Made by a program: the position numbers and the translations under genes. Shown here in pieces: positions 16,198-59,579 of a stretch of DNA of 64,000 bases. The notes under the pieces were generated by a model. The model was not told the DNA's origin. It saw only the letters and a list, made by a program, of their open reading frames with translations, and searched no databases. The stretch's first letter is position 1. The number at the start of each line of letters is the position of its first letter. This DNA is from a bacterium (GTDB taxonomy: Bacteria; Patescibacteriota; Minisyncoccia; JACQLN01). Where the stretch lies: assembly GCA_030697795.1 (NCBI GenBank), contig JAUYOV010000004.1, forward strand, positions 11,831 to 75,830. The letters run 5' to 3'.

Positions 16198-17949
16198 CTA
16201 CAAATTTAATAATTTTTGAGTAAGTTCACTAAACTCTATAAGCAAAAGATTCAAAGCCTGGCTGTCGCCATCGGCTTCAGCTTTTTTTATATCGGCTTGA
16301 ATAACTTTAAGCTTGGATTGCAAACTTTGTTTTTTTAAACTAACAAGAGTTCTGGCAAATTCGTCTGCCGGATCTATATTAAAATCGGCTATTAGCTCGC
16401 TCATAGCAATTAAGCGAGAATCAGCCGAGTCCGGAATTTTAGCGTCGTTATTTGCCAGCAGACTTTGGGCCAGCGAAAATAAATTTGGCTGGGAGAATAA
16501 TTCTAGCTCCTCATTGCCAAGGCGGCCTTTTAAGTCTGGATATCTTAGTATTAAAGATAACAGATACTCTTCTTGACGTAAACCCGGCAAATCTTTGGGA
16601 GAAATAATAGCTTTAGATAAAGCAATATTTGGAACCTGCGGTTTTTGATTAAAATCCTGAATAACTAACTGTCTTAACTCTAAATTTAAAACGTCTCTAG
16701 CTATACCGGCCTTGTGAGAAAGTTCTTCCAACCAATAATCCCTATCTAATGGCGAAATAATACTTTTTATAAATGGCAAAACATTGGCTAAAACATTTTT
16801 CTTAGATTCCAAAGTTCCAGAAAAATCTTTTAAAGATCTATTTATAATATGCGCTAAATACGGCACCGGTTTTAAAACCGATTCACTCCAAAGTTTTGGA
16901 TTTTCCTTTACAGTATCGGCCGTGTCTTTGCCCGAAGGAATAGAAACTACCGAAACATTTAAACCCGAAGCTATCGCCATATTAACGCCCTTTTTTAAAG
17001 CACTATCCCCCGCTTCATCGGCATCAAACGCCAACATTAATTTTTCGGTGTATCTTTTTATTATGCGCGCGTGGCTTCCGCCAAAAGCCGTACCACAAGT
17101 AGCCACCACATTTTTTACACCAGCCTGATGCGACATAAGCACATCCATTGTGCCTTCGAGAAGTATACAACCTTCGTTTCTAATATACGTTCTAGATTTA
17201 TCTAAACCATAAAGCGCTTGCGATTTGTCGTATAAAATGGTGCTTGGAGTATTTACATATTTTCCGGCATCTTCGTGCACAGTCTTACCTTTTACTTTTT
17301 CGAAAATTCTGCCCGTAAAGCCAATCACCTGCCCTTGACTATCGGCTATAGGAAACATTATGCGGTGTCTAAACCTATCGTGATATTCACGCGTGGTTTC
17401 GCTTTTTACAGCCAGCCCCGATTTATCTATTTCATCGTTGGTATAACCTTCGGAACTTAAAAAATTATGTAACGATTGCCAAGTATCAGGCGCCCAACCA
17501 ATTCTAAAGTTAGTTAAAGATTCTTTAGTTACTCCTCTTTCTTTTAAATATTCTACTGCCCCTAAACCTGGGCGAGATAATAACTGGCGTTCAAAAAACT
17601 TTGTAGCAAGTTCGCAAACTTCGTAAATTCTTTTTCGTTGCGAGCCTAACTGCACATCTTGATCGCGTTTTATTAATTTAACTCCGGCTTTCTCGGCCAG
17701 CATTTTTAACACATCGTAAAATTCCAAACCCTCCATTTTTTGCACAAAAGAAAAAATGTCTCCTCCTTCACCGCAACCAAAACAATGCCAAATCTGTCGA
17801 GCGGGCGTTACCACAAACGAAGGTGTCTTTTCGTGATGAAAAGGACACGAGCCCTTCCAGTTAGCACCAGCTTTTTGCAACTTTAAATAGCCCTGAATAA
17901 CTTCGGCAATATCTAAACGACTTTTTATGTCTTCAACTTGAGAGGTCAT
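16198..17949 (-). CDS. dnaG: DNA primase; true start MTSQVED rather than the ORF-track start
   Basis: CPFHHEKTPSF zinc-binding motif, TOPRIM region. Confidence 0.9.
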   Translation of the reverse strand: MTSQVEDIKSRLDIAEVIQGYLKLQKAGANWKGSCPFHHEKTPSFVVTPARQIWHCFGCGEGGDIFSFVQKMEGLEFYDVLKMLAEKAGVKLIKRDQDVQLGSQRKRIYEVCELATKFFERQLLSRPGLGAVEYLKERGVTKESLTNFRIGWAPDTWQSLHNFLSSEGYTNDEIDKSGLAVKSETTREYHDRFRHRIMFPIADSQGQVIGFTGRIFEKVKGKTVHEDAGKYVNTPSTILYDKSQALYGLDKSRTYIRNEGCILLEGTMDVLMSHQAGVKNVVATCGTAFGGSHARIIKRYTEKLMLAFDADEAGDSALKKGVNMAIASGLNVSVVSIPSGKDTADTVKENPKLWSESVLKPVPYLAHIINRSLKDFSGTLESKKNVLANVLPFIKSIISPLDRDYWLEELSHKAGIARDVLNLELRQLVIQDFNQKPQVPNIALSKAIISPKDLPGLRQEEYLLSLILRYPDLKGRLGNEELELFSQPNLFSLAQSLLANNDAKIPDSADSRLIAMSELIADFNIDPADEFARTLVSLKKQSLQSKLKVIQADIKKAEADGDSQALNLLLIEFSELTQKLLNL

Positions 17950-18119
17950 GCTGGAATTATGTATCAGAAATCGGGAATTAGGAAGTCTAATTTGACATAA
18001 ATAGCTAATCAAGCACTCTCTTATGTTAAACATCCAGTGTTTAACATTGAGGTACATGATAATCCCTTTCAACTCGCAGACTCTGTTCAGGGTATTTATT
18101 CAACACTTAGTGTTGAATA

Positions 18120-18153
18120 AATAAAAGAGAGGCTCCTGTTTAGAAACCTCTCT
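18120..18153 (-). terminator. Rho-independent terminator after the GC-rich gene
   Basis: AGAGAGG...CCTCTCT hairpin followed by a minus-strand U-run. Confidence 0.55.
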
Positions 18154-18173
18154 AGGTACTACTTACTTCTTGT

Positions 18174-18995
18174 TCAGTTGGTGCCGACCAACTCGGCCTC
18201 TTCTTCTGCTTCGAGATGGCCATTGCCGACGGGATCACCATCAACCCCGATCTCGCCTTCAGCGAGGTCTTCGACCACCTCGGCAGTGGTATTGCTGTCG
18301 ACGAGGCCTTTGACAACCCCGATCCCACCGAAGTTGATGTTCACCAGCAGGGCTTTCACTCCGAAACACACGGAGACGAAGTCCCTACCGGTTTCGGTCG
18401 GAGGCTCGAAACCGATGTGGTCGAGAACACTGCGAAAGTCCTCTTCCACGAATTTCCCCGCGCCTTTGAAGACGAAAGTGAGAAGATTCCTCACCACACT
18501 TCCTCCGCCCTGCATCTGGAGCGCATTCGCGAGCCAGACGACGGAGGGGAGTATTAACCCCACGCGGGTTGCCATCTTGAGCGTCTTGATGGCGTCGTCG
18601 CCGAGACCATGCCTCTTGAGTCCCGCCATTTCCATGCTCTCGTCTTGGATCCGCTCTCTCCGCGCTTTTTGCGTGGCATCATCACGGCTATACCGCGCAC
18701 AGCCGTTATGATCGAGGTAGCACGTAATCCAGCACTCGAGCTGGTGACCACCACTTCCTTCCTTGTAGCGGAAGATCTGGCCGGGAGCGAGAACCATTCC
18801 ACTGGCTTTCGCCTGAGTGTAGAGGAAAGTCAAAATCTTATCTCCCGGACAAAGAACACCGTACCCTCCAGTCTCTTCGTCTCTCAGGACCATGACCTCC
18901 TCTTTTCCGATGGCCGTCTGGCGCATATGCACGAACTGCTTGCGCTCGTTCGCAACATCCGCCTGGCGAACTATCTTGTTCGTCTTGGCACTCAT
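18174..18995 (-). CDS. Compositionally foreign (GC ~57%) orphan protein of 273 aa; start at second Met
   Basis: Abrupt GC jump confined to this ORF. Perfect SD AAGGAGG sits 8 nt upstream of the ATG at 18993-18995. Plus-strand ORFs here are high-GC artefacts. Confidence 0.6.
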   Translation of the reverse strand: MSAKTNKIVRQADVANERKQFVHMRQTAIGKEEVMVLRDEETGGYGVLCPGDKILTFLYTQAKASGMVLAPGQIFRYKEGSGGHQLECWITCYLDHNGCARYSRDDATQKARRERIQDESMEMAGLKRHGLGDDAIKTLKMATRVGLILPSVVWLANALQMQGGGSVVRNLLTFVFKGAGKFVEEDFRSVLDHIGFEPPTETGRDFVSVCFGVKALLVNINFGGIGVVKGLVDSNTTAEVVEDLAEGEIGVDGDPVGNGHLEAEEEAELVGTN

Positions 18996-19079
18996 AGCAA
19001 AAACCTCCTTATTGAAAAACCCCTGAATCGCGACCGTCATAGGCCGTCGCCGCCTATATTAAGAACAATTATGTTTATA

Positions 19080-19135
19080 AGTATAGTCTATATCATAACT
19101 CTTGTCAAGAGCCACCCTTAAAATCTCAAGGGTGG
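19080..19135 (-). promoter_or_regulatory. Conserved hairpin (CCACCCTTAAAATCTCAAGGGTGG) plus TTGACA-N18-TATACT promoter upstream of the GC-rich gene
   Basis: The same element recurs upstream of the second GC-rich gene (35935-35990). Confidence 0.5.
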
Positions 19136-19192
19136 GGTTGAAATCACTCATTTTTATTGACTATACTCAACAAAACTGATAAACTCTCGTCA

Positions 19193-19654
19193 ATGAAACT
19201 ATACGAACTATATACTGTTTTAAAACCATCTTTAAACGAAGATGGTCTCAATAAATTTGTTTCCGAAACAACCGAGGCCATGGCTAAAGGCGGTTTTGGA
19301 ATCACATTTTCTAAAATAAAATTGGGAGAATATTTGCCGTACCCTATAAAGCACTGTATTCAAGGTCATACCGTAGATCTGGAACTTTCCGGCGCAGAAG
19401 AAAGTGTTTTTCCTCCAGAAATTGAAATTAAATTACGCCACAGCGAAAATATTTTGCGCTACCTGCTTTTAGCTAAATCAGAAAAAATGTTAAAGAAAAC
19501 AAAACCCTTGCCTGTTTTTGAAGCACGCCCATACAGAACCGAAAGAAGACAATTACCTGTTTTAGAAACTGCTCCGATAGTTGTACAAAAAGAACCGCCG
19601 GTAGAAATTAATACAGAAGAAGTTGATAAAAAAATAGAAGAATTACTTAAATAG
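19193..19654 (+). CDS. rpsF: 30S ribosomal protein S6
   Basis: MKLYELYTVLKP start; rpsF-ssb-rpsR synteny. Confidence 0.85.
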   Translation: MKLYELYTVLKPSLNEDGLNKFVSETTEAMAKGGFGITFSKIKLGEYLPYPIKHCIQGHTVDLELSGAEESVFPPEIEIKLRHSENILRYLLLAKSEKMLKKTKPLPVFEARPYRTERRQLPVLETAPIVVQKEPPVEINTEEVDKKIEELLK

Positions 19655-19699
19655 CAAGATTAGCTTATTAGATCGTTAGCTTCCTAGAAAATTCCTAGA

Positions 19700-19729
19700 A
19701 AGCTAAAAGCTAAAAGCTAAAAGCTAAAA
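19700..19729 (+). repeat. (GCTAAAA)x4 microsatellite directly abutting the ssb start codon
   Basis: Perfect heptamer tandem; no SD present. Confidence 0.8.
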
Positions 19730-20628: not shown

Positions 20629-21495
20629 TTAAAAAAGAACTTCTAATTTATTTCTAGCAAAATGAGATCGAAGTTTACCTAAAGCACGTTCTTTTAGTTG
20701 CCGAATTCTTTCCCTTGTCAGATTTATATTTTCGCCTATTTTTTCCAAAGTTTGAGGCTCGGCGCCGTCCAAACCATGATAACGTTTTATTATATAATAT
20801 TCTCTGTCGTTTAAACACTCTCTTACAGCAACAAGAATGGCATGGCTTCTCTCCTTAATTTCAATACTTTCATCTGGCAAAGGGTCATCATCTATCAGGT
20901 TATCCAAAAAAGTCATGTTGCCATCATCATTTACTTCGTAATTTAGAGAAATGGGTTTCTGTGATATTTCTCTTAGGTCATCTATATCTTCTTTAGTTTT
21001 TAGTTCGCTTTCCGAAAGAATTTCTTCTATTTTAGGAATCCGACCTAATACCTGAACCAAACTCGCTTCAAGTTTATTTAATCTGTCTAATTCACCAATC
21101 TTATTTAACGGCAAACGAACAATGCGCGCATGCTCCGCAAGAGTTTGGAGAATTCCTTGCCTTATCCACCAAACTGCGTAAGAAATAAACTTAAAGCCTT
21201 TGTTACCGTCAAACCTTTGAGCAGCTGTAATCAAACCGCTATTACCAGCTTGAATTAGATCGCTAAGAGGCAAACCCTTGTTAATATATTTCTTGGCCAC
21301 ATCCACCACAAAACGAAGATTATTCTTAATTAGTTCGTTTAAAGCCTCTTCATCTCCAAGCTTTATAAGCTTGGCAAGTTCTTGTTCCCTTTCCGCTGGA
21401 AGACCTCCAGAGTTTTCTATATCACGAAAATATATATGAAGAAGATCAGAATTACCATCAAAAACACCCTCAATTGGATCGTCCCCACGAGACAT
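20629..21495 (-). CDS. Alternative sigma-70 family sigma factor
   Basis: Regions 2 and 4 (YAVWWIRQGILQ..., LEKIGENINLTRERIRQLKERAL). Confidence 0.8.
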   Translation of the reverse strand: MSRGDDPIEGVFDGNSDLLHIYFRDIENSGGLPAEREQELAKLIKLGDEEALNELIKNNLRFVVDVAKKYINKGLPLSDLIQAGNSGLITAAQRFDGNKGFKFISYAVWWIRQGILQTLAEHARIVRLPLNKIGELDRLNKLEASLVQVLGRIPKIEEILSESELKTKEDIDDLREISQKPISLNYEVNDDGNMTFLDNLIDDDPLPDESIEIKERSHAILVAVRECLNDREYYIIKRYHGLDGAEPQTLEKIGENINLTRERIRQLKERALGKLRSHFARNKLEVLF

Positions 21496-26840: not shown

Positions 26841-26918
26841 GTCGGGGGTAGCTCAATTGGTCAGAGCGGCTGACTGTGGATCAGACTGTGTCGGTTCAAA
26901 CCCGGCTCCCCGGCACCA
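26841..26918 (+). tRNA. tRNA-His (anticodon GTG) with G-1:C73
   Basis: Manual cloverleaf: G-1, acceptor TCGGGGG/TCCCCGG, D-arm GCTC/GAGC, anticodon loop CTGTGGA, T-arm GTCGG-TTCAAAC-CCGGC. Confidence 0.7.
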
Positions 26919-27017: not shown

Positions 27018-27123
27018 TCCGCGGTAACTCAGAGTGCTGACTTAAGGGCCGCAAGCCCCGGCCGGTTAGAGTGCCTAGCTGATAACTAGGAGGTCGTTGG
27101 TTCGAATCCAACCCGCGGAGCCA
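27018..27123 (+). tRNA. tRNA-Ile (anticodon GAT) carrying a ~31-nt hairpin insertion in the D-loop
   Basis: Acceptor TCCGCGG/CCGCGGA, D-stem ACTC/GAGT, anticodon arm CCTAG-CTGATAA-CTAGG, T-arm GTTGG-TTCGAAT-CCAAC, G73-CCA. Insert 27033-27063 AGTGCTGACTTAAGGGCCGCAAGCCCCGGCC. Confidence 0.5.
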
Positions 27124-34691: not shown

Positions 34692-34720
34692 ACATGTTCA
34701 ACATTCAATGTTGAACATGT
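34692..34720. repeat. REP2 palindrome ACATGTTCAACATTCAATGTTGAACATGT, left flank of RAYT-2
   Basis: Perfect palindrome; copies at 34901-34925 (inside the CDS) and 35390-35418. Confidence 0.85.
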
Positions 34721-34734
34721 TATAATTTTGATAT

Positions 34735-35391
34735 ATGAGAAAAACAATTTTGGCCGAAGGCGAATATTATCATATCTATAATCGTGGTGTAGAGAAAAGA
34801 AACATATTTTTAAACGATAACGATAAGTGGCGATTTATGACCCTCTTACTAATATTTCAAGGCAAGGGTCATATTGATAATATGCAACGTATTGTTAAAC
34901 TTGTTCAACATTCAATGTTGAACAAAGAACCATTTGACGACATCCTTTTGAATAAAAAGGTTGAACTGATATGTTTCTGTCTGATGCCAAATCATTATCA
35001 CCTTATATTAAAAGAAATTAAAAATGGAGGAATTTCTAGTTTTGGGCAAAGATTAGGTAACAGTTATACAAAATATTTCAACACTAAATATAAACGCACT
35101 GGACACTTATTTGGTGGAAGATTTCAAACGGTTCACATAACTCAAAATACATATCTCAAACATTTATCTTCTTATATACACAATAATCTAACAGAACTAA
35201 ATAATTGGAAAAAATTGGAAAACGAATATTTTTGGTCAAGTCTGCCAGATTATGTAAATAAAAACCGATGGGATAAGTTTCTAAACCCGGAAATAATTCT
35301 AAACCAGTTTAGGGGTAAAAATGATTATCTAAATTACATCAAAAATAATCGAAACAAAATTAAAAAACTAGATGGTTACTATATAGATTAA
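34735..35391 (+). CDS. REP-associated tyrosine transposase (RAYT), copy 2
   Basis: GEYYHIYNRGV, LMPNHYHLIL HuH motif; paralog of 26032..26706. Confidence 0.7.
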   Translation: MRKTILAEGEYYHIYNRGVEKRNIFLNDNDKWRFMTLLLIFQGKGHIDNMQRIVKLVQHSMLNKEPFDDILLNKKVELICFCLMPNHYHLILKEIKNGGISSFGQRLGNSYTKYFNTKYKRTGHLFGGRFQTVHITQNTYLKHLSSYIHNNLTELNNWKKLENEYFWSSLPDYVNKNRWDKFLNPEIILNQFRGKNDYLNYIKNNRNKIKKLDGYYID

Positions 35392-35418
35392 TTGTTCAAC
35401 ATTCAATGTTGAACAATT
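35390..35418. repeat. REP2 palindrome, right flank of RAYT-2
   Basis: AATTGTTCAACATTCAATGTTGAACAATT. Confidence 0.85.
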
Positions 35419-35431
35419 GGATCAGAGAGAT

Positions 35432-35470
35432 AATAAAAAGAGGCGTTCGATTAAGTCGAACGCCTCGGTG
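35432..35470 (-). terminator. Rho-independent terminator (GAGGCGTTCGA...TCGAACGCCTC plus U-run) ending the GC-rich small-gene transcript
   Basis: Strong 11-bp stem followed by a minus-strand TTTTT. Confidence 0.6.
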
Positions 35471-35647
35471 AGGATCTGCTTCCCCATGGCTCTCCATTTT
35501 TGATTCAATCGGTTCAAAAACGGGGACAAAAGACCTTTTCGTAGTGTGGTTTAAGTTACCAACTTCGTCGCATTCCTCTCACCTCCTTTCGTACACGCCG
35601 CTTGGTTTTCTCCAGAGGCGGCGGCCGAAGTTACCAGCTCACAGAGC

Positions 35648-35872
35648 CTATTTCTTGTTTCCCATCATGGCTTTGGCGGTCAGCAGACCAACGAAACCGG
35701 ATCCCACTCCCACCATCATCCATAACCCCATAGGCACAGGGTCTGGATGGGAATTGAATGAAGCCCCCAAGGCGATGCGTATATCATTCCCGATCTGGAA
35801 ACCAAACTGCACCGCCATTACGCTGAAACCCGCCGTCAGAATCGACGCGAAAAACATGATTACCTTTCTCAT
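35648..35872 (-). CDS. Small glycine-zipper membrane protein (74 aa) in a GC-rich island; start at MRKV
   Basis: GC ~50% island 35430-36000; SD GAAGGGG; two TM helices with GxxxG repeats. Confidence 0.45.
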   Translation of the reverse strand: MRKVIMFFASILTAGFSVMAVQFGFQIGNDIRIALGASFNSHPDPVPMGLWMMVGVGSGFVGLLTAKAMMGNKK

Positions 35873-35934
35873 TTTTTCCCCTTCTAAAGGGTTAAGAGTA
35901 TTTGTTAGTGTACTATCCTTTTCTAGCCTGTCTC

Positions 35935-35990
35935 TATCATAGCATAGTCCAATATGGCTTGTCAACCCCGCTCTTGAAATCTCAAGGGCG
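35935..35990 (-). promoter_or_regulatory. Second copy of the conserved hairpin (CCCCGCTCTTGAAATCTCAAGGGCGGGG) plus TTGACA element, upstream of the GC-rich small gene
   Basis: Aligns with 19080-19135 (ATAGTC...CTTGTCAA...CCnCCCTTnAAATCTCAAGGGnGGGG). Confidence 0.45.
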
Positions 35991-36074
35991 GGGCAAAAAG
36001 CCATACAAAAAACCTCATTTTAAGAGGCTTTTTTCTATCGAAGTGGAACTTCGATAGATTTCTTCGATAGATTT

Positions 36075-57704: not shown

Positions 57705-59579
57705 CTACTTCTTTTCCAAAACCTTGACCATGACCGAGCCAAAACCTTCCGGCAAAACCCAATCTAGTTTTTTCTCCAGACTAGTCGTATCGTTGTAGAT
57801 AGTGAGTTCTTCCAGAACAGGCAATAACATCGTCGACACCAACCCCGTTGAGTCTGACTTGGTTGAGTCTATTTTAGCCGCCTCAGAAATAGCGGTCAAC
57901 AAACTATCAACCGATACTTCTGTTGGCAAAGGCTGGCTAAAAGCAAGGATGACTTTCAAAATGGCTTTGGGTTCAGGACCATTCATGAAGTCAAAAACAT
58001 CTTGCAGGTTTCCAAACTCAACCGAACTGGGAGTGTCGTCATAATCAGCATCTTTGCCCAAAGAATACAGTGAGCCCACGGTCAAACTGTAGATGCCGGC
58101 CGCAAATGTATCCGGCACAGCTACTATCACATTGAAATCAGCATCCTTACTTCCTCCGACCCTTAAGCTAAATTTGACCGACAGGTCGCTACCGGCCGTG
58201 ACCACACTATCTGCTTCAAGCGCGATCGGCATAGCAAACAAAGCATCGTCCACTACATCCACGCTCATTTGGATACTACGGAACTCCAAATTGGCGTATC
58301 CGTTGGCCACGGAGTTCAAATAGACGCTAAAGACAAAATCGAACAGTGCCTCACCCAACACGTCTATCACCCCAGAATTGGGAAAAGCATAGATTCTCTC
58401 GCGCTCAACCTTTAAATCGGAATTAGTGAAGCTCGCCTCTGTTCGGACTTTCAGGCTCTTGCCGGTGGAATTATCCAACCGGTTGGCCAATGGCGACAAG
58501 AGCGTAACTCCTGTCATTATAGCCTGATTGAATAAGCCAAAACCGGACAGTTGCGTTCGAGCCATTCGGTGATTCATGCTAAAGGCTTTTTCACCAAAAA
58601 TGGAAGCGCTGAAGACCAGCGGAATCATATCGGGCTCTTGGCCAATCACACCTCCGACTCCGGGCATGCGATCATAAAGAATTGTTCCTAGAACTTTGTT
58701 GCCCAGAGTGGCAAATTTGAAAGGCGAGTTGAGATTACTTATCTCGCCCAGAACCTCGGCGCCGATTATCGGGATCGAAGTCTGACCATTGCCTAAAAAA
58801 GGATGGCCGAAACCGAGAATATTGTTACCCTCAACATAGGTTGCCGTTCCCACGGCTCCGATATTTACTTCATCGCCCGTAAATAAGGCAGCAGCCAAGG
58901 AACTGCCGGGTTTAAATTCTTGTTCGATTTTGCCGCCAACTCCAGCAGAACCGGATGCCGCGAGCAAATTGAGATGACTCTCGTCGCCCAATTTGTCGGC
59001 ATACTTTCGCATAGCCGCATCAAGCAGACGGTTGTTCACACCCGACATCAATAGGGGCAAAGCCAATGGTCTAACAATGTTTCCATTCCAAACCACCGGC
59101 TTACTGGATCTGATTTCCGGGTCGATGATGCCTTTTTGCATCCACTCAATTGGGGTTGCAAAAAAATAGTAAGGTGAGCTGTTCTCCGAATCAAAGCCCA
59201 TGGACAAAGCACCAATCACGCCGTCTTTTGTAAAAACTGGTGAACCCGACTGGCCACGAACCGCAGGACGCGAGGATTTGAACATGACCACTGGCATCGG
59301 TGGGACAAAATCGTCCACCACCGAAACCAATGCAACTTCAAAGTCTTCCATCTCGCCAAAAACAGAAGTTCGCACATACATCTTTGTTCCTGCGGGCATA
59401 GCCCGAACTGAATCCAATGGCACAATCTTGGTGAGATCCCAAGAAGAAGTATCCATATTGTTCGTTTCTACAACCACACCCTCATCTTCTGCGTTCGAGG
59501 ACAACACTGTTTTGCTTTTGCTATCACAGGCCAAAAGGCCAAGAGTGATAGCGAAAAGCCAAGTCAAATGATGAAACAT
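57705..59579 (-). CDS. Lipoprotein with a trypsin-like/SpoIVB-like serine protease motif
   Basis: Lipobox LGLLAC; RGQSGSPVF (GxSGSP serine-protease signature); GC ~45%. Confidence 0.45.
   Translation of the reverse strand: MFHHLTWLFAITLGLLACDSKSKTVLSSNAEDEGVVVETNNMDTSSWDLTKIVPLDSVRAMPAGTKMYVRTSVFGEMEDFEVALVSVVDDFVPPMPVVMFKSSRPAVRGQSGSPVFTKDGVIGALSMGFDSENSSPYYFFATPIEWMQKGIIDPEIRSSKPVVWNGNIVRPLALPLLMSGVNNRLLDAAMRKYADKLGDESHLNLLAASGSAGVGGKIEQEFKPGSSLAAALFTGDEVNIGAVGTATYVEGNNILGFGHPFLGNGQTSIPIIGAEVLGEISNLNSPFKFATLGNKVLGTILYDRMPGVGGVIGQEPDMIPLVFSASIFGEKAFSMNHRMARTQLSGFGLFNQAIMTGVTLLSPLANRLDNSTGKSLKVRTEASFTNSDLKVERERIYAFPNSGVIDVLGEALFDFVFSVYLNSVANGYANLEFRSIQMSVDVVDDALFAMPIALEADSVVTAGSDLSVKFSLRVGGSKDADFNVIVAVPDTFAAGIYSLTVGSLYSLGKDADYDDTPSSVEFGNLQDVFDFMNGPEPKAILKVILAFSQPLPTEVSVDSLLTAISEAAKIDSTKSDSTGLVSTMLLPVLEELTIYNDTTSLEKKLDWVLPEGFGSVMVKVLEKK

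Follow-up and report, generated by a model that had tools for sequence, protein, structure and literature searches.

Here, we analyzed a 64,000-nucleotide (nt) stretch of a patescibacterial contig (JAUYOV010000004.1, hereafter called the window) and focused on an open reading frame (ORF) at positions 18174-18995 of its minus strand, which is unusually rich in guanine and cytosine (GC) and lies directly upstream of dnaG-rpoD. It proved to be a clade-restricted, single-copy gene. The gene is present at the same site in all related lineages examined, its composition stands above that of its neighbors throughout the clade, its synonymous substitutions are biased toward G and C, its product is under purifying selection, and the cis elements around it are conserved. 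This core description is well supported. As to the cause of the GC bias, we infer, with about as much doubt as conviction, that the GC-rich coding sequence (CDS) is held by an ongoing synonymous fixation bias resulting from selection on the mRNA.

The ORF encodes 273 amino acids (aa) beginning with MSAKTNK. Its GC content is 56.6% (37.7% for the window), and its GC content at third codon positions (GC3) is 0.675, which is 6.3 standard deviations above the other ORFs (60 non-nested ORFs of at least 120 aa, mean GC3 0.33). This excess, found mainly at third positions, is far beyond chance and mostly synonymous. The GC contents of the first, second and third codon positions are 0.63, 0.39 and 0.675, giving the order GC3 > GC1 > GC2 expected of the coding frame, whereas the GC3 of neighboring genes is 0.25-0.40. 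When 200-nt windows are used, GC is 0.50-0.605 over 18100-18999 and 0.355-0.39 on either side, and the segment 18001-19000 (GC 0.529) ranks first among the 64 windows of 1 kb. Codon preference is reversed relative to the host: the fraction of TTC among Phe codons is 0.91 versus 0.07, of ATC among Ile codons 0.67 versus 0.07, of CTC among Leu codons 0.65 versus 0.03, and of CAG among Gln codons 0.80 versus 0.20. GenBank lists the product as a 288-aa 'hypothetical protein' (MDP3764224.1) starting at 19040, which is 15 residues too long; both the orthologue alignment and the position of the Shine-Dalgarno (SD) sequence support the 273-aa start as the preferable one.

A word-indexed search of 5.8 billion proteins returned the protein itself, two relatives (58% and 49% identity) and nothing else. 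A full scan of 1.84 billion cluster representatives with a hidden Markov model profile gave a family of eight representatives (E-values down to 1e-147), and a ninth homologue was found through synteny in locus L017. With the window's protein, this makes ten distinct sequences in the roughly 15 billion proteins covered. IMG/VR, the INPHARED phages, the PLSDB plasmids and GC-rich contexts of any kind yielded no relatives; no paralogues, partial copies or silent cassettes were found in the 64-kb window; and a full-text literature search turned up neither a description of the family nor a similar composition island in Patescibacteria. All members with readable context occupy the slot between rpsF and dnaG (adjoining one or both of them), divergent from rpsF-ssb-rpsR and directly upstream of dnaG-rpoD in the same orientation. 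The hosts are Yanofskybacteria-like Patescibacteria, one of them labelled Candidatus Yanofskybacteria. Among the compared loci (L-numbered below), those bearing an orthologue include L001, L004, L007, L010, L011, L013, L014, L015 and L017, and L020 and L021 serve as outgroups. The gene is present in 9 of 9 related lineages examined (DnaG 72-93% identical in the four with a full-length dnaG). The two outgroups (DnaG 67% and 62% identical) keep the order recA-ssb-rpsF-[slot]-dnaG-rpoD-uvrD and have neither the gene nor its leader motif; in the slot they carry a PaaX_M-like gene with normal GC, encoded on the opposite strand (191-209 aa, faintly Cas2-like; 4268-4897 in L020 and 4095-4670 in L021). 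Gene turnover thus seems to have recurred at this slot, and the occupation of the same slot across related lineages, with another gene in the outgroups, indicates a clade-specific gain that is not peculiar to the window genome. No integrase, att site, tRNA feature or mobility gene was found at or beside the slot.

The original prediction, made from the letters of this stretch, had described a single orphan gene, horizontally acquired and captured into the macromolecular-synthesis operon in place of rpsU. Its sequence-level details were all recovered here: the GC step over the ORF, the AAGGAGG SD sequence 8 nt upstream of the start, the gene's own terminator, the perfect 25-nt palindrome, and a 273-aa product with an acidic C-terminal tail and no family. 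Its status as a single orphan did not hold, as homologues with the same GC bias, which had been named as a finding that would speak against it, were looked for and found at the same place in at least nine other lineages. From the proposed horizontal acquisition, a lineage-specific addition absent from two outgroups remains; a compositional scar of transfer and a donor were not found.

In one sub-lineage, seen in L013 (1211-1831) and L016 (133-753), dnaG is directly preceded by an extra 206-aa gene on the opposite strand, with a normal GC content of 0.33 and no family match. This gene separates the GC-rich gene from dnaG in L013, and the L016 contig stops before the expected site of the GC-rich gene. 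The contigs carrying or adjoining the gene in L010, L013, L014 and L016 are very short or end beside it. A GC island may break assembly or binning in AT-rich genomes, and thus the family may be under-sampled.

The compositional bias is a property of the whole family. Nine measurable orthologues have a GC content of 54-63% and a GC3 of 0.67-0.79, with 36-45% GC in the rest of each locus, and the bias is kept even in orthologues whose proteins are only 21-25% identical. Averaged over these nine, GC rises at the ATG (from 0.38 to at least 0.51) and falls right after the stop codon (from 0.64 to 0.40), and GC3 is flat along the CDS (0.65-0.77). Synonymous changes were then polarised by lineage in the trio formed by the window, L001 and L004, with six flanking genes for comparison. 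In the gene, changes from A/T to G/C (weak to strong, W>S) amount to 0.417 and the reverse changes (S>W) to 0.142 per synonymous site, which implies an equilibrium GC3 of 0.75, equal to the observed value; in the flanking genes the two rates are 0.106 and 0.214, and the implied equilibrium GC3 of 0.33 again equals the observed one. Compared with its flanks, the gene thus has a 4-fold higher W>S rate, a 0.66-fold S>W rate and about 1.8-fold higher overall divergence. Synonymous sites are saturated between the alleles of different lineages (synonymous divergence, dS, 1.3-2.7). Saturated sites together with an equilibrium GC3 of 0.75 indicate a composition that is actively maintained and not the fading signature of a transfer. 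On this sequence evidence, the pattern would fit a fixation bias favoring G and C with a scaled strength (4Nes, four times the product of effective population size and selection coefficient) of about 1.8, in addition to the roughly 1.8-fold higher divergence.

Several properties of the CDS bear on the level at which such a bias would act. GC3 is 0.72 at conserved and 0.70 at variable residues (p=0.43) and is equal in the folded part and the disordered tail; selection for translational accuracy was rejected on this ground. C is favored over T even in pairs of codons that share one tRNA (TTC 0.77-0.91 versus 0.07 in the host), which argues for a cause at the nucleotide level. With protein sequence and codon usage held fixed, the dinucleotide TA at codon junctions is reduced to 0.47 of expectation (z -6.6) and TC is raised to 1.44, whereas host genes show no depletion of TA (1.00) and different deviations (GA 0.51, GC 1.86, TT 1.48). 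The mRNA is more stable than its synonymous-codon shuffles in 8 of 9 orthologues (combined z about -6.9), with individual z values of -6.0 for the window, -4.0 for L014 and -3.5 for L010, compared with -0.9, +0.8 and -2.1 for host controls; against dinucleotide shuffles, the window transcript has a z of -5.6. Taken together, the uniformity of GC3, the preference for C over T, the depletion of UpA and the strong folding lead us to favor selection for a GC-rich, UpA-poor and heavily folded message. Pairing between leader and CDS was also considered and rejected: a 25-bp duplex is present in the minimum-free-energy structure of the window's transcript, its position is not conserved, and elsewhere such pairing does not exceed that of synonymous shuffles.

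The protein evolves quickly and under constraint. Between the window and L001 or L004, RpoD is 97%, RecA 91-96% and DnaG 88-91% identical, while the gene product is 58% and 49% identical. Among these three closest lineages, dS is 0.6-0.9 in most flanking genes (at most 1.6 for ssb and recA versus L004) and 1.5-1.9 in the gene. Nonsynonymous divergence divided by synonymous divergence (dN/dS) is 0.19-0.25 among closer pairs and 0.36-0.49 in the most distant ones, where dS is saturated; values below 1 indicate a real, constrained protein under purifying selection. The contrast with the flanks is uneven. Gene dN divided by dnaG dS reaches 0.5-0.96 in five close lineages, and L001 and L013 have DnaG N-termini that are 99% identical and gene products that are 40% identical; between L011 and L017, the flanks are if anything the more diverged part. 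The identity of the gene correlates with that of RpsF (Spearman 0.76), and the same lineage groups emerge from the gene and from its flanks. Between the near-identical strains L001 and L007, 2 of the gene's 831 nt are different, a level close to that of dnaG and rpsF, so that local hypermutation is not supported. In the comparison of L001 (3112-8403) with L007, ssb has 144 and rpoD 34 differences per kb, whereas rpsF, the GC-rich gene and dnaG have 0.6-6.4. This mosaic directly attests to recombination tracts within conserved genes of the flanks. The heterogeneity of rates is compatible with old alleles, with allele exchange, or with homogenisation of the flanks by recombination. A second gene of the sigma-70 family, located beside rpsR and recA (20629-21495, minus strand, GC 0.37), is also fast-evolving, with 46-58% aa identity where DnaG is 88-91% identical and a dS of 1.7-2.4. 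As its GC is normal, fast evolution at this locus is not tied to GC-richness.

The gene has its own expression signals (Table 1). The -35 element, the spacing and the -10 element of the promoter are kept in 8 of 8 orthologous loci that reach that far upstream, a GGAGG-type SD sequence is found at the equivalent position in the orthologues, and the terminator sequence AAGAGGTTCCnAAACnGGAACCTCTTTTTT lies 3' of the CDS in 9 of 9 loci. For dnaG, a -10-like CATAAT is located 6 nt before the ATG (17956-17961), and the sequence CTGATACATAAT before the ATG (17947-17969, minus strand) is conserved in all related loci; the position of CATAAT suggests that the dnaG-rpoD mRNA may be leaderless or nearly so. 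The conserved promoter, the efficient-looking terminator and the separate -10 element of dnaG indicate an independent monocistronic unit outside the dnaG-rpoD operon, and capture into the macromolecular-synthesis operon was thus not borne out. Small genes upstream of dnaG are known from Escherichia coli (rpsU-dnaG-rpoD) and Bacillus subtilis (yqxD (P23)-dnaG-sigA). The gene studied here is likewise immediately upstream of dnaG-rpoD and co-oriented with it; it differs from a first cistron of the rpsU type in forming a unit of its own, and its product is not S21, being a 273-aa acidic protein without Pfam or NCBIfam match. Nothing points to rpsU ever having occupied the slot, and with the E. coli and B. 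subtilis proteins as queries, tblastn gave no S21 in the window.

Table 1. Features of the GC-rich gene and its surroundings (positions in the window)
Feature	Position	Strand	Description
rpsF	19193..19654	+	Divergent upstream neighbor, first gene of rpsF-ssb-rpsR; Ribosomal_S6 Pfam matches in orthologous loci
Putative sigma-70-type promoter	19080..19108	-	TTGACA, 17 nt, TATACT; 11 of 12 consensus matches
5' leader	18996..19073	-	About 77 nt; transcription start inferred from the -10 element
Leader motif, 26 nt	19030..19055	-	AGGCGGCGACGGCCUAUGACGGUCGC; nearly invariant, GC-rich
Shine-Dalgarno sequence	19004..19010	-	AAGGAGG, 8 nt before the ATG (18995-18993)
CDS, N-terminal part	18174..18995	-	Residues 1-24 basic helix, 25-106 alpha+beta domain, 107-130 basic connecting helix (predicted)
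CDS, C-terminal part	18174..18995	-	Residues 131-226 five-helix bundle, 227-273 acidic disordered tail with NGH motif (predicted)
Putative intrinsic terminator	18116..18153	-	12-bp stem and AAAC loop (18153-18126), then TTTATTTATT, U-rich
Perfect palindrome, 25 nt	18096..18120	.	TTATTCAACACTTAGTGTTGAATAA = TTCAACAC-TTA-GTGTTGAA; 12-bp arms, intergenic spacer
dnaG	16198..17949	-	Toprim and zinc-ribbon DnaG domains in orthologues

The leader motif is single-copy in each locus, with a constant position and 22 invariant columns in nine loci whose proteins are 21-58% identical to that of the window. It was not found elsewhere in the window, in the outgroups or in IMG/VR viral contigs. Rfam 15 (4227 families) gave no match at E<=1 over 17900-19300, and no leader match at gathering score was obtained in the whole window. 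Two helices, interleaved with each other, could form (RGGC/GCCY and GCGAC/GUCGC), corresponding to the topology of an H-type pseudoknot; all 81 of 81 pair cells are standard, including one double change from G-C to C-G and G-U, A-U and G-C variants, whereas slid controls pair only 20-49% of cells. A small hairpin (ACAUU..AAUGU) is also found in the leader of most orthologues. Short pseudoknot leaders include the autoregulatory leaders of ribosomal proteins and of T4 gene 32 as well as the preQ1 and SAM-II riboswitches. The present motif shares with them its small size, its GC-richness, its position between promoter and SD sequence, and two possible interleaved helices that fit 9 of 9 loci; it differs in having no Rfam match, weak covariation and no thermodynamic excess, and may act as DNA. 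In 6 of 9 loci an AUG is found within the motif; it is absent in L011 and L015 and replaced by GUG in L013. In the window this AUG (within 19030-19042) is in frame with the gene, which explains the 288-aa call in GenBank. It opens a 5-codon mini-ORF (MTVAI or MTVGI) in three loci, a longer out-of-frame ORF in L014, and, in L001, a 15-codon ORF that terminates with UGA and overlaps the main AUG. An upstream ORF was therefore rejected as a conserved feature, given the loci without the AUG.

Based on these results, we propose the following scenario. The gene would have been gained once at the base of a small Yanofskybacteria-like group and kept between rpsF and dnaG since then. Its bias would reflect selection on an mRNA that is GC-rich, UpA-depleted, strongly folded and written in host-rare codons; such an mRNA may persist for long or resist nucleases, and may be translated slowly. 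The invariant leader motif could serve as a regulatory handle, for example as a small pseudoknot bound by a ligand or protein, and the product would be a two-domain soluble protein with an acidic, motif-bearing tail, most likely an adaptor or regulator. Several points weigh against this scenario. The pattern of polarised substitutions would look alike if the alleles had diverged in another GC-rich genome. Three of the nine mRNAs are not clearly above shuffle stability, and the host control rpoD itself reaches a z of -2.1. No conserved RNA structure was found in the CDS, the structure conservation index being about 0 in all 120-nt windows. The dS of the gene is 2-4 times that of dnaG in five close lineages and lower in L011/L017; this uneven ratio is not predicted by in-place evolution at a constant rate and hints at allele exchange or recombination. 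Covariation in the leader is thin, with one compensatory pair and 33 of 500 shuffles scoring as high, and the isolated leader folds no better than shuffled sequence, so the motif could instead be a DNA or protein-binding site.

A related but more specific idea, which we regard as tentative and rather unlikely, is that the CDS is kept in a 'foreign' dialect as a gene-specific compositional code for regulation, so that its mRNA behaves unlike all others in the cell and the leader acts as a switch. Such a message might survive AU-directed RNases or ribosome-dependent toxins during a shutdown of the transcriptome; alternatively, it might be translated efficiently only with a non-host tRNA pool, supplied by a phage or by the partner cell of the episymbiont. 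Selection would have preserved the dialect over a span exceeding the time needed to saturate synonymous sites.

GC-biased gene conversion at a recombination hot spot would produce much of the same picture and do so with no selection on the mRNA. Here, a divergent CDS would recombine between conserved anchors, formed by promoter plus leader at one end and by terminator plus dnaG at the opposite end, and G/C-biased repair would raise both GC and divergence. The shifted W>S and S>W rates and the raised divergence of the gene would look the same under this process; the mosaic tracts in the flanks of near-identical strains, the variation of the gene/flank divergence ratio between lineage pairs and a GC pressure that is even across conserved and variable codons are also in line with it. 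However, in 9 of 9 lineages no more than 30 nt separate the limits of the GC rise from the start and stop codons, boundaries that conversion tracts should not respect, and alleles whose proteins are 35-58% identical are too divergent for the required heteroduplex. Neither the UpA depletion nor the pattern of junction dinucleotides is predicted. Moreover, the effects reported in bacteria that resemble biased gene conversion amount to a few GC3 points and not to about 40. We consider this explanation improbable. The Borrelia vls antigenic-variation locus is a GC-rich, fast-evolving system in an AT-rich genome, and the gene resembles it in a local GC far above that of the genome that is kept across species while the protein diverges quickly. 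Unlike vls, it has no silent cassettes or partial copies within the 64-kb window, no G-runs or G-quadruplex motifs (GC skew 0.05-0.14) and no signal peptide; the product is predicted to be cytoplasmic, and near-identical strains hardly differ in it.

It is also conceivable, with a probability that we judge to be low, that the family evolves in an unseen GC-rich genome, plasmid or virus and that its alleles are repeatedly imported into the fixed slot, with the conserved leader and terminator as the sites of recombination. Such cassette exchange would account for alleles far more diverged than their flanks, as in L001 and L013, for the high ratio of gene dN to dnaG dS, for a dinucleotide signature that looks foreign and for sharp composition boundaries at conserved flanking elements. 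Against it, no member was found outside this locus of the candidate phyla radiation (CPR) in the proteins, viral contigs, phages and plasmids searched, and the slot lacks integrase, att and tRNA features. Gene identity tracks that of RpsF and the lineage groups coincide, and the leader motif and terminator are gene-specific and absent from the outgroups.

A recent horizontal acquisition by the window genome, with a GC content that still reflects the donor, has very little left in its favor. The atypical composition and codon usage and the absence of the gene from two outgroup lineages agree with it, but the same locus and bias recur in lineages with saturated dS, and neutral amelioration should have largely erased an excess in GC3 for which the implied equilibrium is instead 0.75; a donor and mobility genes are also missing. 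In the amelioration framework of Lawrence and Ochman, horizontally acquired islets and ORFans show atypical composition. The gene matches such ORFans in its taxonomic restriction, its GC, codon and dinucleotide signature unlike that of the host, and its absence from outgroups. It differs in that its GC3 is undecayed in all lineages and has a GC-rich equilibrium of its own, that no mobility genes or known donor accompany it, and that its locus is fixed across the clade.

Still harder to sustain is the notion that the ORF is incidental and that the GC-rich block is a large structured noncoding RNA or a gene overlapping it in another frame or strand. The strong folding of the transcript against dinucleotide shuffles and a codon-aligned antisense frame without interruption in 3 of 9 orthologues and almost uninterrupted in another 2 may be cited for it; however, the frame is intact in every homologue, the homologues were found by protein profile, dN/dS is below 1, the predicted fold is confident, no conserved RNA structure or Rfam match exists, and the open antisense frame is a by-product of codon usage alone and is interrupted in 4 of 9 orthologues. 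An overlapping or antisense gene was rejected as such, since alternative frames lack conservation and stops are depleted in them to the same degree as in host genes. Finally, a chimeric or contaminated assembly joining GC-rich foreign DNA to a CPR contig, which the sharp boundaries and several public contigs ending near the gene might suggest, is excluded, because a separate assembly of SRR13727529 covers 17680-19723 of the window with both junctions at 100% identity, and the architecture recurs in assemblies (ENA, JGI, Logan and NCBI) made independently, with different assemblers, from further samples.

The product belongs to a new protein family without recognisable fold relatives. Searches of Pfam, NCBIfam, PHROGs, PADLOC and PDB sequences with the single sequence and with the profile gave no usable match (E<=1 for PHROGs and PADLOC), no fold match was found in BFVD, and the predicted protein matches no known fold or family. 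AlphaFold2, run on an alignment of 9 sequences, modelled residues 1-226 with a predicted local distance difference test score (pLDDT) of 75-92. The tail (residues 227-273) has 13 Asp and Glu versus 1 Lys or Arg and an isoelectric point (pI) of 4.05 (5.3 for the whole protein); nearly all members carry the motif xTNGH or NGY in it, and its end is often acidic and EAEL-like. Apart from the start Met, W154, E184 and G195 are the only invariant residues, so there is no obvious catalytic signature. No transmembrane segment or signal peptide was predicted. Residues 170-210 (41 residues) align weakly with the N-domain of archaeal P1 and with EF-hand helix-loop-helix motifs (E 0.05-0.17), which is only a lead. 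No significant sequence or fold match to the N-domain of Ribosomal_60s (stalk P1/P2) was obtained, and a fold match to the Cas11/Cmr5/Csm2 small-subunit helical bundle together with a CRISPR-Cas context was not found. A globular part followed by an acidic tail, here of about 45 residues with the short conserved motif xTNGH, is also seen in adaptors such as the C-terminal tip of SSB, the delta subunit of Firmicute RNA polymerase, and archaeal and eukaryotic P1/P2. From its architecture and context, our guess is that the protein may be a soluble adaptor or regulator that docks on a conserved partner via its tail, rather than an enzyme.

The 25-nt palindrome stands in the spacer just after the terminator, a typical placement of repetitive extragenic palindromic (REP) elements, and a degenerate second copy is located at 18026-18044. 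Elsewhere in the window, a gene for a Y1 (IS200-like) transposase of the REP-associated tyrosine transposase (RAYT) type was identified at 34735-35391 (PF01797, E 1e-9; element span 34694-35417), with three near-identical palindromes TTCAACAT-TCA-ATGTTGAA (TTCAACATTCAATGTTGAA) just before, inside (34904-34922) and just after it. The spacer palindrome shares the arms TTCAACAY...RTGTTGAA with them and has 2 differences over the 19-nt core; six matches of this palindrome family were observed versus 0.2 expected. Judging from these similarities, the 25-nt palindrome is a REP-like element of the RAYT-associated family. It is not conserved, as other lineages carry different palindromes and L004 and L015 have none, and a role as conserved operator of dnaG was thus rejected.

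Other features of the window were also observed. A second compositional outlier is a 624-aa ORF at 57705-59579 on the minus strand (GC 0.476, GC3 0.51), with a lipoprotein-signal-like N-terminus (LGLLAC) and no significant Pfam match (Trypsin at E 0.008, short of the cut-off). Directly after the RAYT element, about 500 nt at around 50% GC (35400-36000) contain overlapping ORFs on opposite strands (35544-35942, plus; 35648-36004, minus) with no Pfam or Rfam match. A tRNA-like gene at 27049-27119 was detected by Rfam (30.1 bits versus a cut-off of 29) and not called by ARAGORN, which reports tRNA-His (26841-26918) as the sole tRNA.

Atypical GC content is routinely taken as a sign of recent transfer, and this demonstrably fails for the gene described here, whose GC3 is held about 40 points above that of the genome across the clade and lies at its own substitution equilibrium. 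With about ten sequences from one narrow clade, the family is small, which limits its wider reach for now. Two testable objects were found beside core replication and transcription genes, namely a new protein family and, in the leader, a nearly invariant motif that Rfam does not contain. Should mRNA selection indeed be the cause, the gene would offer an unusually clean natural setting in which to measure selection on message composition and synonymous sites, and this in bacteria with tiny genomes, where selection is presumably weak.

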